Of a DNA stretch of 64,000 nt, positions 6,806-12,722 are shown piece after piece. Numbering within the stretch: the first letter of the stretch is position 1; every line of letters begins with the position of its first letter. Location: positions 32,001-96,000 of IMG/VR virus record IMGVR_UViG_3300027749_000060; one strand, 5' to 3'. The DNA comes from a virus. The notes under the pieces are model-generated. The model made no database searches and was not told the DNA's origin. It worked only from the letters and a program-made list of their open reading frames with translations. The translations under genes were made by a program, and so were the position numbers.

Positions 6806-9800
6806 TTAATATGCTGCATTTAATAACTGTCGGGTATTATTGTTGCCTTCGGTTAGTAAATTTATTAAATTATCAGTTTTTGTTATACTAGTTTCCATTG
6901 CTAGTAATTGTTTACTTACTAATTCAAGTAACTGTTGCTGATCAGACCCTATAGGAGCAGATATTGGTTCGTTGGTTAGAGATTTTGGTTGAACTTGAGT
7001 TGCTTTTTCTGCTTGAACATTTTTATCCCTGAGTTCCCCAATCATTCTAGACAAAGCACCATCTAACTGTTGATTGCTATCAACTATTAACGATTTTGAT
7101 ATACTATCAAAACTTTTATTAATTTGATTTGGAGAATCTTGATTTGTTAATAATAACTGTGATGTGTTTTTATCTGTTGATACACCTAACGCTAACATTT
7201 GATCAAATGTTTTTTGTATAGACGTTGAACCCAAGTCAAATTGATTAGTTGACATTGCCGAATTGAACATCTTATCAGTTAGTGTTTGAAATTGTGTAGT
7301 TTGATCGGTTGATTGTTTGCTTGCAGTACCACTGAAGTTAAGTAACTGCCCCATTGTAGTTTCCATTTGTGACATCAATGAGTTAGATTGCGCAGTATCT
7401 GCTTTTGTATTATTACCAAAAGAATCAATTGACGATTTTAATTGTGCAGTTTGATCTGCAAACTGTGCGGTGGGTAATTTAATAGCACCAGACATCTGAT
7501 CAATCGACGATTTTAATTGTGCAGCTTGATCTGCAAACTGTGCGGTGGGTAATTTAATAGCACCAGACATCTGATCAATCGACGATTTTAATTGTGCAGC
7601 TTGATCTGTAAATTGTGTATTAGGTGCTTTAACAGAACCAATCAATTGATCAATTGAAGTTTTTATTTGCCCAACTTGAGTCGCAACTTGTGCAGTGGGT
7701 AAATTTGCAGAACCAATCAATTGATCAATTGAAGTTTTTATTTGGCTAGCTTGATCTGCAAATTGTTTATCTTGCCCGTTGGGTAATTTAACGGCAGTAG
7801 CCAATTGGTCAATTGACGTTTTTATTTGTCCTGCTTGATCTGCAAATTGTGCGTTAGGTGTACTAATAGATCCAATTAATTGAGTGATTAAACTTTTTAT
7901 GTCACTGGTTTGATTTGCAAACTGTGCATTGGGTAAATTAACAGCACTAGTCAATTGATCCATTGAAGTTTTTATTAAACCAGCTTGATCTGCTACTTGA
8001 GTATTCTGTACGTTAGGCAGTTTAACAGCAGTAATTAATTGATCAATTGATGTTTTTATTTGACTTGACTGATCTGCAAACTGTGCATTGGGTAACTTAA
8101 CAGCATCTAATAATTGGTTAACTATGCCTTGTAATTGAGTATTTTGCCCCAACGACTGTTGATCCATGGATTTACCAATGGTAGTTAATTGATCAATTGC
8201 CAATTTTGTAACTTCTGCGTTATTTGATCTAGACATTTCTGCCGAATTCATTTGATCAAATATAGTTTTAAGTTGTGGTGCAAAATCAGTAAAGCCCGGA
8301 GGCATCATTGATTCAACTTTAATGTTAATATCTTTGTTCAGTATGTCAGATAACTTATTTGCTCCGCTTGATAACAAGGTCTGCAGAGAAGTACCAGCAG
8401 CAGACAAGCTAGAAAAAAACTCTTTAAATGGAGTTTGAGCTTGCTCGTTTGCTGTTGATATAATACTACTAGGAGTAGCAAGCCCTTTATTGTATTCATC
8501 GGTTTCAGCTCGATTTAATACACGCTCACCTTCATGTATTAATAAAATTTTGGTACTGGGTTCAGCAGCGGCACCGTAACGTTTGCCTGTTCCATCCAGT
8601 CTGGTATTTTTAGGTTTACTAAAAAATCCCTCAATTGCGCCGCCAATACCGCCAATTATGCCGCCAATTACGGTTCCAGTAGCTGCTCCGCTATAAAGAC
8701 CTGCGCCTGCGCCTATTACTGTACCAAAGCCAGGACCAACAGCACTTCCGGCTATACCGCCGGCGACCATGCCAACGCCAGCACCTGTTTCAGCACCAAA
8801 TGCGGCGCCATCGGCGGCGCCGCTAAGAGCGCCCGCTTTTACTCTATCAAACGTACTTCCCCCACCTGCAGCGGATGCTGCACCGGTGCTACTGCCTCTA
8901 TCGTGTATCTCTTTGGCAATTTCAGCAAATGTCTCTTTTATGCTTTCAAGCATTGCTGCGGTTACCGACGCATACCCTTTAATCAATGGATCCATGGCCG
9001 ATTGTAAATCTAGTGCCATTTTTTGCGATGCTTGCAGTGCTTTCATCAGATCATTAGTTAACTCGTCTTTGGTAGTTTCTTGCCCTTTGGTGCCTTGTTC
9101 GGCCAATTTTTGTGCATCGGCAGTCCATAAATTTCTGAATTTCAACTCATCGCCCATTACTTTAGATAAATCAGTAACAAACCCACCAATACCTGCCATA
9201 CCTGCCATACCAATATCCGACTGCTTGAGCATGTCATCTTTAATTTGGCCAGTATACTGCCCATTTATACGTCGTTGTTCAGCATCATCAAGTTTACCAG
9301 CTTGGAATGCTTTATAGCTGGAGGTAACACTGTCGGTTAATCCTTGACTCATTGCTGCCGCTGCTGCGCCTTCTTTGTTAATAACACTGCCAAACATGAC
9401 CATGTCCATGAAGTTTTTGCGCTCCAATTCACTCATGTTACCCATCGCACCAATAACACCCTTGCGCTGATTTTCATCCATGCCGGCTAGTTTTTGTTGG
9501 AAACCAAGTTGACTGGCTTGATCTCTAACTCTTGCCATTCTTTGTTTTGCATCTTCGCCAGTAATAGCAGATATTATTCTTAAATTTTCAGCATATTTTT
9601 GTGTTTCTGCTGCAATTTGCGTGTCTGTGGCCTTTAAGGGTCCACCAGACTGACGCATATCTTTCATGGTTTCTGCCACTAAACCAGCTTGATCTTCTAA
9701 ACTGTATCCCAAATTTAATAGGCTGCGTTGCATTGTGTCGCCACCAGCTTTTAGTGCTGCACCTACTTTTTTAATGCCGCCAGATACACCCAATCCGGAA

Positions 9801-10618
9801 CCTGCTAGGGTACTTGAATTTTCTTGTACTACTTTAGCAAATTGATTTACTGTTAACCCAGCTGCTAAGGATGCATCACGCATGCCTTGTACACCGTCGG
9901 CAAATAGAGCACCACTGGCACTCATTGTCATAAACGATTCTACTGATTTTTTTAGTTCTGCACTCAGAACTTCTATACCAAATTTAGCTAGTTTGCTTGC
10001 CGATTCGCTGAAAAAACTAAGTGCAGTCCCTGCTGCCATTAGCCCTAATCCAAATAGTTTTGCTTTTCCTGTGCCATGCATCAGGGCTTCGCCCAGGCCT
10101 TGTGCACCTCCAGCCGCAGCTTGTAGTCCACTGTTAGCAACATCAACGCCAGCGGTCATTATTCCAGCAGCTACATCTATACTAGACGCACCGCTTTGTA
10201 GATTTTTTACAAAAGTCCCAGCGCCACCTGCGGCAATTTGTCCTATCGCTGCACTGGCTTTTTGCAATCCTATAGTAAAGTTAATGGTTGCCGCTTTAGC
10301 ATTAGCTTCAAAATTTTCTTTAGCTATCTGGGATTTCTCCCACATGAGAGTATCTTTTTCAGTTTTTTTAGTAGTTTTAGATATCTGTTCGTCTAGTTTT
10401 TTTAACTCATCTGATATATCCCGATATGGTAATTTTTGATTTTTAATTACACTACTAAAAAATCCAGTGTCCTTTGAAGCTTGCCTGATAGTCTTTGACA
10501 GACGTAACAGCGCATCATTGGCTTCTTGTGCCCGTGCTGCATCTTCCGCACTGGTGCGAGTCTGTATGCCTGCTTGTAACGCTTGAACAATTGCTTCTGC
10601 TAATCTAGTTTCATCCAT
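6806..10618 (-). CDS. Tape-measure-like protein
   Basis: 1270 aa, Ala/Gly/Gln-rich helical, central glycine-zipper segment, HEGERVL motif, 25-aa repeats. Confidence 0.75.
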   Translation of the reverse strand: MDETRLAEAIVQALQAGIQTRTSAEDAARAQEANDALLRLSKTIRQASKDTGFFSSVIKNQKLPYRDISDELKKLDEQISKTTKKTEKDTLMWEKSQIAKENFEANAKAATINFTIGLQKASAAIGQIAAGGAGTFVKNLQSGASSIDVAAGIMTAGVDVANSGLQAAAGGAQGLGEALMHGTGKAKLFGLGLMAAGTALSFFSESASKLAKFGIEVLSAELKKSVESFMTMSASGALFADGVQGMRDASLAAGLTVNQFAKVVQENSSTLAGSGLGVSGGIKKVGAALKAGGDTMQRSLLNLGYSLEDQAGLVAETMKDMRQSGGPLKATDTQIAAETQKYAENLRIISAITGEDAKQRMARVRDQASQLGFQQKLAGMDENQRKGVIGAMGNMSELERKNFMDMVMFGSVINKEGAAAAAMSQGLTDSVTSSYKAFQAGKLDDAEQRRINGQYTGQIKDDMLKQSDIGMAGMAGIGGFVTDLSKVMGDELKFRNLWTADAQKLAEQGTKGQETTKDELTNDLMKALQASQKMALDLQSAMDPLIKGYASVTAAMLESIKETFAEIAKEIHDRGSSTGAASAAGGGSTFDRVKAGALSGAADGAAFGAETGAGVGMVAGGIAGSAVGPGFGTVIGAGAGLYSGAATGTVIGGIIGGIGGAIEGFFSKPKNTRLDGTGKRYGAAAEPSTKILLIHEGERVLNRAETDEYNKGLATPSSIISTANEQAQTPFKEFFSSLSAAGTSLQTLLSSGANKLSDILNKDINIKVESMMPPGFTDFAPQLKTIFDQMNSAEMSRSNNAEVTKLAIDQLTTIGKSMDQQSLGQNTQLQGIVNQLLDAVKLPNAQFADQSSQIKTSIDQLITAVKLPNVQNTQVADQAGLIKTSMDQLTSAVNLPNAQFANQTSDIKSLITQLIGSISTPNAQFADQAGQIKTSIDQLATAVKLPNGQDKQFADQASQIKTSIDQLIGSANLPTAQVATQVGQIKTSIDQLIGSVKAPNTQFTDQAAQLKSSIDQMSGAIKLPTAQFADQAAQLKSSIDQMSGAIKLPTAQFADQTAQLKSSIDSFGNNTKADTAQSNSLMSQMETTMGQLLNFSGTASKQSTDQTTQFQTLTDKMFNSAMSTNQFDLGSTSIQKTFDQMLALGVSTDKNTSQLLLTNQDSPNQINKSFDSISKSLIVDSNQQLDGALSRMIGELRDKNVQAEKATQVQPKSLTNEPISAPIGSDQQQLLELVSKQLLAMETSITKTDNLINLLTEGNNNTRQLLNAAY
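7430..8130. repeat. About 9 tandem 75-84-bp coding repeats (QFADQAAQLKSSIDQMSGAIKLPTA)
   Basis: attgtgcag at 7441 and 7516 (period 75); copies degenerate toward 8130. Confidence 0.85.
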
Positions 10619-10635
10619 GGCCAGGTTTTTCCCGA

Positions 10636-10662
10636 TAAATATATTACTAACTTATATTTATA
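10636..10662. promoter_or_regulatory. Two crossed late-promoter boxes (TAAATA on + at 10636-10641; TATAAATA on - at 10655-10662)
   Basis: T4 gp55 late consensus TATAAATA; lies between the divergent tape-measure and gp26-like genes. Confidence 0.7.
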
Positions 10663-10674
10663 GGATTTCAAATA

Positions 10675-11523
10675 ATGGAAAATCAACGCAAAAACCCACT
10701 AGCTGGGCACTTTAGACAACCGGCTATTTACTTAACATTACCCAGCAAAGGTCGATGGTGGGGTGAAAATGCTCTAAATATGCCAGCAAACCAAGAAATA
10801 CCCATTTATCCAATGAGCACCAAAGATGAAATTATACTCAGAACACCAGACGCATTGCTAAATGGCCAGGGTATTATAGAAGTTATTCACAGTTGTTGCC
10901 CAAATATATTAGATGCATGGCAAATGCCTAGCATTGACGTAGATGCTGTGTTAATAGCAATACGCATTGCCACCTACGGCAATGACATGAATTTTGATAG
11001 TAAATGCACACATTGTGGTGAAGATAATACACACGGGGTAGATTTAAGTGAGCCATTGGCTAGTTTAAGATGTCCTAACTATGCCGAACCATTAGAACAT
11101 AAAGGCTTAAAAATAAAGTTTAAACCACAACATTATTTTACTGCTAATAAATCAAATGTTTTAGAGTTCCAAGAACAAAAGATATTAAATTTACTAGCAG
11201 CAGCAGACATGGATCCAGAAGATAAAGCAGTGCAAATAAAACAGGCAATGGATAAACTTTTTGATCAAGGCCTCAGGGCCTGTACGGACTGCACAGATCA
11301 TATAGAAATGGAAGACGGCCAGCAAGTACATAATACTGACTATATCTTTGAATTCTACACAAACGCTGAAAGCGGACTAATCCGCGAAATACAAGCTAAA
11401 GTACAAGAGTTTAGCAATCAAGCTAAACCTGATGGAATAGCACTAGCATGTCAGGAATGCCATAAACCATACGAGGTAGAACTAGCGTTCGATTACGCAA
11501 ATTTTTTCGGAAGAGGCTTTTAA
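10675..11523 (+). CDS. gp26: Baseplate hub / tail assembly chaperone, gp26-like
   Basis: YLTLPSKG, PMSTKDEI, DVDAVLIAIRIATYG, CxxC pairs, C-terminal NFF. Confidence 0.8.
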   Translation: MENQRKNPLAGHFRQPAIYLTLPSKGRWWGENALNMPANQEIPIYPMSTKDEIILRTPDALLNGQGIIEVIHSCCPNILDAWQMPSIDVDAVLIAIRIATYGNDMNFDSKCTHCGEDNTHGVDLSEPLASLRCPNYAEPLEHKGLKIKFKPQHYFTANKSNVLEFQEQKILNLLAAADMDPEDKAVQIKQAMDKLFDQGLRACTDCTDHIEMEDGQQVHNTDYIFEFYTNAESGLIREIQAKVQEFSNQAKPDGIALACQECHKPYEVELAFDYANFFGRGF

Positions 11524-11741
11524 CTTTAAACACTGACGCAGAGGTCATCAAGTTCTTAGAGAGATATGACCGAGAAGTAAAAGCCTTAAAAGAAGAAACA
11601 TTGCGTATGTGCTGGTATATGAGAGGAGGAGTATCTTATAATGAACTCATGGAAATGAGCAACATTGAAAGAACTATCATTGGGGATATTATTAAAAGCA
11701 ATTTAGAAACTACTAAAGAATCCAAATTGCCTTTCTTCTAA
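11499..11741 (+). CDS. gp51-like frame, probably reached by -1 frameshift from the gp26-like gene
   Basis: Frame -1 is open 11466-11741 and reads ...WYMRGGVSYNELMEMSNIERTIIGDIIKSNLETTKESKLPFF*; no ATG/GTG/TTG until 11601. Confidence 0.7.
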   Translation, partial: KFFRKRLLTLNTDAEVIKFLERYDREVKALKEETLRMCWYMRGGVSYNELMEMSNIERTIIGDIIKSNLETTKESKLPFF

Positions 11742-12200
11742 TATTCTTTATCTATTCGAGACTTGCTGTGCAAGTCTATTGCTATCGCTATCGCTCAGCA
11801 ATATTATTTCTTCTAATCTAAGAAACAATTCTAAATACTTTTAATTCGGATATATTATCTAGATGTAGATCACAATTCGGCCCAGCAGGCCAAAATTGTG
11901 ATCGAGACATTATCTGAGTGCCTTCAACACACTAACTATAAGAGATTGCTTGCTGGTGCAAACACGGAGGCGGTCATCCTGTACCCCCTACTCTAGATTC
12001 GATTATGACGGTACACTATACAATAACTAGTTAGCGCCATTGTTAGTGCTTGGGTTGTATATTTTTTACAGAGCCCAGATCATTTAATACCTTACGTTGG
12101 TATCTTACCGTACAGCTCCTAAGTCTGCGGGTGTTATTTCACACACACTCAATAGGGATCGAGGTACCTCGATCAAACGACGCTGCTATAATAATTTGCC
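11742..12200 (-). ncRNA. Candidate large structured non-coding RNA or structured cis-element
   Basis: ~460 nt without a credible ORF; many helices, G-U pairs that work only on the - strand, and an 8-bp loop-distal pairing. Confidence 0.6.
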
Positions 12201-12722
12201 TTAGCGGCTGGATTTACATAGTTGTTCTATTGATTCGGAATTTTTATTCCAGAATGATTCAAAGTCTTGGATGATCCATGTGCCATAATTAGGAGAGATA
12301 TACGTGGAGTAATTGGGATTTAGTGATAGACTTGGTGTCGGTTGACAGGCAATATAAGTGCCTTTGCGATTAAATTTCATGAGTAATATATTGAAATCGC
12401 CAGTGTTGGCCACTTCTAATAACTGCCCAATCCATTTTTCTAATATAGGTATTGTACCTTGATAAAGTTGATGGAATGGAAAATCAGCATAACTCTTTGC
12501 TTCCGCATTAAAATATGTCCAAGATTCCGGGGGAACAATATCTCCTTTGAAACTCTTAACTTGACTTGCATCAAGACTTGCTTTTCTAAAAGAATTTGTT
12601 CCGCCAATGTACGCTCCGCTGTGTGGTGCTCTAATAAAAGAGGCATTGTGGCGCTCAGATAGAAATTTGGCAACTACACGTTCCCAGGAATTTCCTTTAT
12701 TTTTGCTTTTTGATCCACTCAT
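12201..12722 (-). CDS. PD-(D/E)xK nuclease, Hjc-like Holliday junction resolvase
   Basis: KGNSWER..., GDI..., EAK catalytic pattern. Confidence 0.75.
   Translation of the reverse strand: MSGSKSKNKGNSWERVVAKFLSERHNASFIRAPHSGAYIGGTNSFRKASLDASQVKSFKGDIVPPESWTYFNAEAKSYADFPFHQLYQGTIPILEKWIGQLLEVANTGDFNILLMKFNRKGTYIACQPTPSLSLNPNYSTYISPNYGTWIIQDFESFWNKNSESIEQLCKSSR

Follow-up and report, generated by a model that had tools for sequence, protein, structure and literature searches.

Conserved sequence signals for a probable programmed −1 frameshift in a gp26/gp51-family baseplate hub assembly gene of an uncultured T4-related jumbo phage

Analysis of a 64,000-nt stretch of uncultured phage DNA (here called the window) revealed a recoding signal at the end of a single gene of the gp26/gp51 family (PF12322). 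Judged from sequence comparison, this signal very probably represents a programmed −1 ribosomal frameshift; the occurrence of the slip, its efficiency, and a chaperone role of the products are inferred. The support consists of a conserved signal, a −1 frame that behaves as coding sequence and lacks a start codon, covarying RNA pairs, fusions that occur naturally in one frame, and a complementary occurrence of one-gene and two-gene phages. There is no direct evidence for the long product. A literature search, which covered few subscription papers, yielded no report of a frameshift in the gp26/gp51 family.

RESULTS

Genomic context and domain content of the gp26/gp51-family gene

The window is contained in a 109-kb IMG/VR record with an estimated completeness of 31%. 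Its genes include T4-type head genes and genes for a portal, gp46/gp47-like nucleases, a late sigma factor, a gp5-like hub, and a gp6-like wedge. The source is an uncultured jumbo phage related to T4, and the wider group includes Atu_ph07, Phosso, RaK2, and PA5oct. Searching Pfam with the 282-aa product of the 0-frame open reading frame (ORF) revealed a match to PF12322 (T4_baseplate) with 52.2 bits (E 8.5e-14; profile positions 10-218 of 219), the curated cut-off being 24.5 bits. This result confirms the gp26-like identity that had been assigned in a preliminary description of the DNA. In PHROGs, the same product matched phrog_150, annotated as "baseplate hub." No other PF12322 gene is present across the 109-kb record. 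The AF2 model of the 282-aa form had a pLDDT of 84.1 and a pTM of 0.75. Comparison of the cysteine residues revealed that C111, C114, C259, and C262 match the Cys pairs that are invariant in T4 gp51, and the CxxC...CxxC arrangement is kept throughout the family, in-frame forms and T4 gp51 included. This four-Cys set, which is common to the short and long forms, is a probable metal site; metal binding itself is inferred.

The gene is positioned on the plus strand and diverges from a gene encoding a 1270-aa protein, and its other flank carries nuclease and gp46/gp47-like genes. The 1270-aa protein showed 23% identity over 313 aa (E 4e-7) to the syntenic RaK2 ORF088, which is annotated as tape-measure-like. 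Its nearest named clusters in the ESM Atlas are tape measure proteins (scores of 0.92-0.94), which were taken as leads only, and no tape-measure match was obtained in Pfam or PHROGs. The divergent arrangement described earlier was borne out, and the neighbor is probably, not certainly, the tape measure gene.

Three further observations concern the flanks. The 56-nt divergent intergenic region (10625-10674) holds ATAAATA, a sequence close to the T4 late-promoter TATAAATA; as a putative promoter element it fits late co-expression of the 1270-aa and gp26-like genes. An 8-bp hairpin, AGACTTGC-TGT-GCAAGTCT (11758-11776), lies 17 nt past the stop codon of the −1-frame extension described below. It lacks a T tract and was not listed in a consensus terminator scan of the plus strand; transcription may end there. 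Between the extension and a PDDEXK nuclease gene (12201-12722, minus strand) there is a large noncoding gap (11742-12200).

A slippery heptamer precedes an open −1 frame without a nearby start codon

The 0 frame of the gp26-like gene closes with GCA AAT TTT TTC GGA AGA GGC TTT TAA. This end contains the heptamer T_TTT_TTC, which is positioned four codons ahead of the stop codon TAA (11521-11523), and the overlapping A_AAT_TTT (11499-11505), which is likewise in X_XXY_YYZ phase. The −1 frame is free of stop codons from 11466 to 11741. Its earliest ATG, GTG, or TTG past the heptamer is TTG 11601, and the next ATG is at 11607. All of these elements, i.e., the end of the 0 frame, both in-phase heptamers, the open −1 stretch, and the first start codon, had been read correctly in the preliminary description. 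No SD-like element was seen upstream of 11502 in the window sequence. A −1 slip on T_TTT_TTC would join 278 and 77 residues into a product of 355 aa with the junction ...ANFFRKRLLTLNTDAEVIK, and the predicted product reads ...ANFF-RKRLLTLNTDAE... across the slip. The coordinates of the features are given in Table 1.

Among the 37 ORFs of the window, an in-phase TTTTTTC was seen just twice. The other copy (10010-10016, minus strand) is located at about codon 201 of ORF 6806-10618. It was rejected as a slip site and is probably a chance occurrence, because the −1 frame is open there for only 8 codons.

TABLE 1 Features of the gp26/gp51-family locus and its divergent neighbor
Feature	Position	Strand	Basis
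Divergent gene, 1270 aa, probable tape measure protein	6806-10618	−	RaK2 ORF088 homology, ESM Atlas
0-frame ORF, 282 aa, short form, gp26/gp51-family baseplate hub assembly protein	10675-11523	+	PF12322, phrog_150
Invariant Cys pairs C111 + C114 (11005-11016) and C259 + C262 (11449-11460)	11005-11460	+	Alignments A1, A6, A8
Slippery heptamer T_TTT_TTC, X_XXY_YYZ phase	11502-11508	+	Sequence and conservation
−1-frame extension, 77 codons (11508-11738) plus stop; C-terminal domain of the predicted 355-aa long form	11508-11741	+	Open frame, codon statistics, AF2
Candidate stimulatory helix, 5' arm GAGGCUUUUA, contains 0-frame stop	11513-11522	+	MFE fold and compensatory changes
Candidate stimulatory helix, 3' arm UAAAAGCCUU	11578-11587	+	MFE fold and compensatory changes

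The heptamer and its phase are conserved among related loci

The conservation of the slip site was determined in 174 related loci. The first set of 94 loci comprised cultured phages, 5 close IMG/VR loci, and 80 further IMG/VR loci at 41-93% identity; the second set, which was independent, comprised 80 loci retrieved by using in-frame forms as the query. An in-phase heptamer followed by a −1 extension of 70-77 codons was found in 171 of the 174 loci, over a range of protein identity from 93% down to 25%. The first set contributed 93 of 94 loci. In the second set, 78 of 80 loci carried the heptamer and needed the slip, and the remaining 2 were in frame. The preliminary description had proposed a fusion of about 355 aa made by a −1 slip beside the 282-aa product and had suggested that homologous loci be aligned for the heptamer and the −1 phase. 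Both proved to be conserved, which gives the fusion comparative support.

The nearest cultured relatives identified by tblastn (25-31% identity) were Phosso, Atu_ph07, PA5oct, RaK2, Serratia BF, Kaldavass, Turkey5, and RsoM2USA. Except for RsoM2USA, all of them have T_TTT_TTC in the same phase, with the 0-frame stop 1-11 codons after the heptamer. Behind the slip site, every cultured relative has a −1 ORF of 65-80 codons and a closed +1 frame. The phase of the extension was always −1 across the relatives examined.

Analysis of 79 distinct sequence contexts revealed that the codon ahead of the heptamer is AAT, AGT, CAT, CGT, GCT, or ACT. Six residues (N, S, H, R, A, and T) are thus encoded at this position, and the third base is always T. 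The two phenylalanines that follow are encoded without exception as TTT (F277) and TTC (F278); the window's own genes use TTT and TTC at a ratio of 485:124. The invariant third-base T over varying residues indicates selection at the nucleotide level, as a tandem-slippage site requires. The overlapping A_AAT_TTT was found in only 36 of the 79 contexts, and it is not conserved because the codon ahead of the heptamer varies. Of the two heptamers originally put forward as the slip site, T_TTT_TTC is retained and A_AAT_TTT is not.

The extension is coding before any possible start codon

Starting from the heptamer, the peptide FFRxRLL is kept even at 25% identity. The earliest possible start codon may lie anywhere from extension codon 1 to codon 36, depending on the locus, and PA5oct has none; gene callers accordingly give the database copies of the extension scattered N termini and lengths of 40-100 aa. 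Nucleotide diversity at the first, second, and third codon positions was 0.41/0.28/0.57 in extension codons 1 to 32, which precede any start in the window, and 0.36/0.19/0.57 in the remainder of the extension domain. The pairwise dN/dS for extension codons 2 to 32 of eight close loci was 0.06-0.69. The diversity pattern and the dN/dS values ahead of any start indicate that 11508-11600 encodes protein in the −1 frame even though it offers no site for initiation. These results supply the coding conservation that the preliminary description had proposed to look for. It had also named a conserved independent start of the second frame as a finding that would refute the frameshift, and no such start exists.

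The extension alone was predicted by AF2 to form a four-helix domain (pLDDT 92.8, pTM 0.70); the long form was modeled only as its two separate parts and never as a whole. No family was assigned to the extension alone in Pfam or PHROGs, and comparison of its model with the PDB gave no match. The public records inspected, among them those for loci L001, L011, L012, L014, and L002, either leave the extension without annotation or enter it as a short hypothetical ORF whose start is arbitrary. RaK2 and PA5oct leave it unannotated. In Atu_ph07, it is entered as a 40-aa ORF (YP_009612352.1; L001:3112-3234) that starts inside the WYMRGG motif. The short hypothetical ORFs in public records are probably a mis-annotated trans-frame product.

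The same −1 ORF might instead be an independent small gene of about 45-78 aa, translated by termination-reinitiation or from a weak start of its own (TTG 11601 or ATG 11607). ATGA-type overlaps in Atu_ph07, Phosso, and Turkey5 and a nearby ATG in Kaldavass and BF are in keeping with such a gene, as are the separate small ORFs listed by annotators and gene callers and the look-alikes of 60-73 aa in BFVD. Coupled reinitiation could indeed also occur in Atu_ph07, Phosso, and Turkey5, since they have an ATG at or near the junction. However, the window and most relatives offer no start for up to 36 codons, and yet purifying selection acts there; PA5oct lacks any start, and the location of the first start varies among loci. 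A separate gene would also leave the invariant NNT TTT TTC and the fixed −1 phase unexplained, and it does not account for natural fusions in which the domain is joined to PF12322 at exactly the slip point. We therefore consider an independent gene very unlikely and favor translation of the extension by frameshifting.

A candidate stimulatory helix lies downstream of the heptamer

Folding of the segment 11502-11600 yielded a structure stronger than that of shuffled sequences (−25.6 kcal/mol; z of about −3.3 to −3.4). The helix in this fold begins 4-5 nt past the heptamer, a spacer at the short end for stimulators. It was read first from the window's own sequence and then counted in relatives. 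Scored as a named structure in 33 diverse loci, 81.5% of the cells were paired, compared to 74.0 ± 1.0% in shuffles, and slid controls reached 29-60%. Compensatory changes were found in 8 of the 10 helix pairs, e.g., UA to CG in 8 sequences and AU to GC in 11. The GGCUCUUUG/CAAAGAGCC helix is also the MFE structure in Atu_ph07 (z −5.7) and Phosso (z −3.0), and PA5oct has a local hairpin downstream of the heptamer. The RaK2-like group showed no significant downstream structure (z about 0), and RNAalifold returned no consensus structure for the 33 sequences. Because the arms encode conserved peptides, the conservation of the helix is partly protein-driven. The data are supportive of a helix that aids the slip and do not prove it.

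These observations also bear on transcriptional slippage, in which the polymerase would insert an extra U, or omit two, at the run of six T residues and thereby produce a minority of mRNA with fused frames. The slip site is a homopolymeric run, and sequence cannot separate the two mechanisms, as the same two proteins would result either way. In the Ralstonia phage RsoM2USA (L013:2265-2540), an in-phase run of nine T residues (GTT TTT TTT TCC) replaces T_TTT_TTC. Polymerase slippage is known at runs of this length, and at this one locus transcriptional slippage looks, from the sequence, as plausible as ribosomal slippage. For the other loci, a run of six is short for efficient polymerase slippage. 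Moreover, the conserved unit is not a mere run but a phased heptamer that includes the flanking T and C, and the helix with its compensatory changes stands at the spacing expected of a ribosomal stimulator. Transcriptional slippage is thus an improbable general explanation, and ribosomal frameshifting remains the preferred one.

Phages with an in-frame long form carry a second, tail-less gene

Searching 1.84 billion representatives with a profile of the extension revealed, in addition to small called ORFs, about 22 proteins of 319-351 aa with the domain located C-terminally to PF12322. These natural fusions represent more than 20 database clusters, and in them the domain is joined to PF12322 exactly at F-R. 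The junction, xF-R-x-K/R-L/I-L/I, contains one F instead of two. The four Cys residues and the WxMRG motif are invariant in the fusions. In-frame loci were also present in IMG/VR and have no slippery site (e.g., GAA TAT TTT CGG), the run at the junction comprising four rather than six T residues. The extension profile matched the in-frame long forms of L096 and L176-L182 with E values of 1e-26 to 1e-29.

Seven of the in-frame loci are distinct, namely, L096 (identical to L097), L176 (same hits as L177), and L178-L182. In all seven, a tail-less PF12322 paralog adjoins the long gene. It is positioned downstream of the long gene and has its own TATAAATA in L096 (5950-7890, IMG/VR 3300043399_000272), and it is positioned upstream in L176-L182. 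Among the frameshift loci, a second PF12322 paralog was found in 0 of 78, with flanks averaging 10.6 kb per locus. The phages compared thus possess a single gene with a slip or else a pair of genes, and T4, with genes 26 and 51, fits this pattern. We take this distribution as an argument that neither form is dispensable and that, in one-gene phages, the slip is the source of the second form. The different gene orders in L096 and L176-L182 suggest that the two-gene state arose more than once.

The in-frame loci also raise the question of an artifact or of decay, i.e., whether the T run was misassembled by 1 nt or the gene was disrupted recently, with only one product being real. Homopolymer runs are error-prone, and in a minority of loci the long form does occupy a single frame. 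Nevertheless, the same interruption in the same phase recurs in 171 loci that were assembled independently and in cultured phages whose genomes are finished, and this recurrence excludes an assembly error, which the preliminary description had listed as a possible refutation. The in-frame forms, for their part, have a single F at the junction and are always accompanied by a second, tail-less gene. An artifact or decay deserves hardly any credence, and an intact gene with a programmed slip is the reading that we retain.

The two predicted products resemble T4 gp26 and gp51

In the T4 literature, gp26 and gp51 are listed only as "hub assembly chaperones" (Leiman et al. 2010, PMC3004832, Table 2). 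Both are needed for hub assembly, gp51 is absent from the particle, and their roles in hub assembly are still vague (PMC3004832). T4 gp26 has 208 aa and gp51 has 249 aa, and both match PF12322 over the full length (215.6 and 177.5 bits, respectively). Since both are full-length members and gp51 has an extra C-terminal tail, they correspond to the short and long forms. T4 gp26 terminates about 18 residues past the second Cys pair, and its end, ...EFFELL, is like that of the 0-frame product of the window (...NFFGRGF). T4 gp51 reads past that point (VFKLLVNPDE...) into a tail of about 48 aa, whereas the tail in the window has 77 aa. The earlier statement that the T4 genes are separate is correct. 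They are two adjacent, divergently transcribed genes without a slippery site, and the FF of gene 26 is encoded by the non-slippery TTC TTT; in contrast, the window has one gene with a predicted slip at TTT TTC. In T4 and in the window, the gene adjoins hub and tape-measure genes, the latter being only probable in the window. One GenBank record names a gp51 "tape measure protein assembly chaperone."

The preliminary description had also called the extension a gp51-like tail. Profile comparison by hhalign placed Y..xMxLSxxER of the extension on Y..xMxMxPxER of the gp51 tail with a probability of 59.5% (E 9e-5), and the fused set was collinear with gp51 through the junction with a probability of 65.8%. 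The in-frame long forms (alignment A8) aligned with gp51 (alignment A3) in the N-terminal part only, with a probability of 52%; the method is low-powered here. BLASTP of the extension or the N-terminal domain against T4 gp51 and gp26 was not significant. BFVD contained gp51 of Acinetobacter phage ZZ1 as a weak row (E 2.7). In precomputed tables, the gp51-type C-terminal tail is PF28602. The likeness of the extension to the gp51 tail is therefore of moderate strength in profiles and absent from pairwise comparison, and we regard it as suggestive.

DISCUSSION

Proposed mechanism and its implications

We propose that most ribosomes read the 0 frame of the gene to TAA 11521-11523 and release the 282-aa short form. 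A fraction would slip back by one base on U_UUU_UUC (11502-11508). At this site, tRNA-Phe in the P site and in the A site would re-pair from UUU UUC to UUU UUU, at most one tRNA-Phe species being assumed. The helix formed by 11513-11522 and 11578-11587 would probably assist the slippage. Ribosomes that have slipped would read 77 further codons in the −1 frame and complete the 355-aa long form, which is predicted to consist of the 278 shared N-terminal residues and a compact four-helix C-terminal domain. The frameshift would in this manner set a fixed ratio of short to long form, as in the lambda G/GT pair.

If correct, the finding would explain why T4 has two paralogs. It predicts that both forms are required, and at a set ratio, and it implies that the public annotation of the extension needs correcting. 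A broader reading, on which the evidence leaves us evenly divided, is that gp26/gp51 constitutes an independent invention of the principle of making a short and an extended form in a fixed ratio, with a fold unrelated to that of gpG. The one-gene slip would then be common and probably ancestral across T4-related and jumbo phages. The T4 pair would be one of at least three resolutions by duplication, i.e., divergent genes in T4, long-then-short in L096, and short-then-long in L176-L182. Such an origin, if true, would provide a defined biochemical approach to gp26 and gp51, whose roles have long been unclear.

Comparison with lambda G/GT and dnaX

Chaperone pairs made by frameshifting are a hallmark of long-tailed phages, and a −1 frameshift is reportedly conserved in their tail assembly chaperone genes. 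To our knowledge, no counterpart of such a pair has been recognized in the T4 paradigm. The locus in the window shares several properties with lambda gpG/gpGT. In both, two products have a common N terminus, an X_XXY_YYZ heptamer is located shortly before the first frame ends, the second frame lacks a start of its own, and the tail-assembly gene is positioned beside the tape measure gene (probable in the case of the window). The two systems differ in protein family, and the short form in the window is far larger (282 aa) and carries the four-Cys site. In lambda, the gene follows the tube gene and directly precedes the tape measure gene in the same orientation, whereas the gene in the window diverges from the probable tape measure gene. 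Searches of Pfam and PHROGs with the 282-aa part revealed no Phage_TAC or gpG-like family, and a Foldseek comparison of its model with the PDB returned nothing at E ≤ 0.001. VIA-align against 48,161 chains found only generic helical hairpins at residues ~151-210 (Z ≤ 8.4). Of the suggestion that gp26/gp51 is the T4-superfamily equivalent of G/GT, the two-product −1 logic stands, and neither homology nor a chaperone fold or family could be demonstrated. The equivalence is one of functional logic, and a chaperone role, binding to the tape measure or tube protein, a requirement of both products for assembly, and absence from the virion can be presumed only by analogy with T4. The recoding signal is nevertheless real and widespread, and what is new is a frameshift-made tail-assembly pair in a different protein family, with expression of the long form being unproven.

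The cellular gene dnaX provides a second comparison. In Escherichia coli dnaX, a −1 slip takes place on A_AAA_AAG, with an SD-like element upstream and a hairpin downstream. The locus in the window resembles dnaX in its tandem-slippage heptamer, in the RNA structure a few nucleotides downstream, and in the two products that would be made in a set ratio. The shifted frame of dnaX reaches a stop codon almost at once, whereas the slip in the window would add a folded domain.
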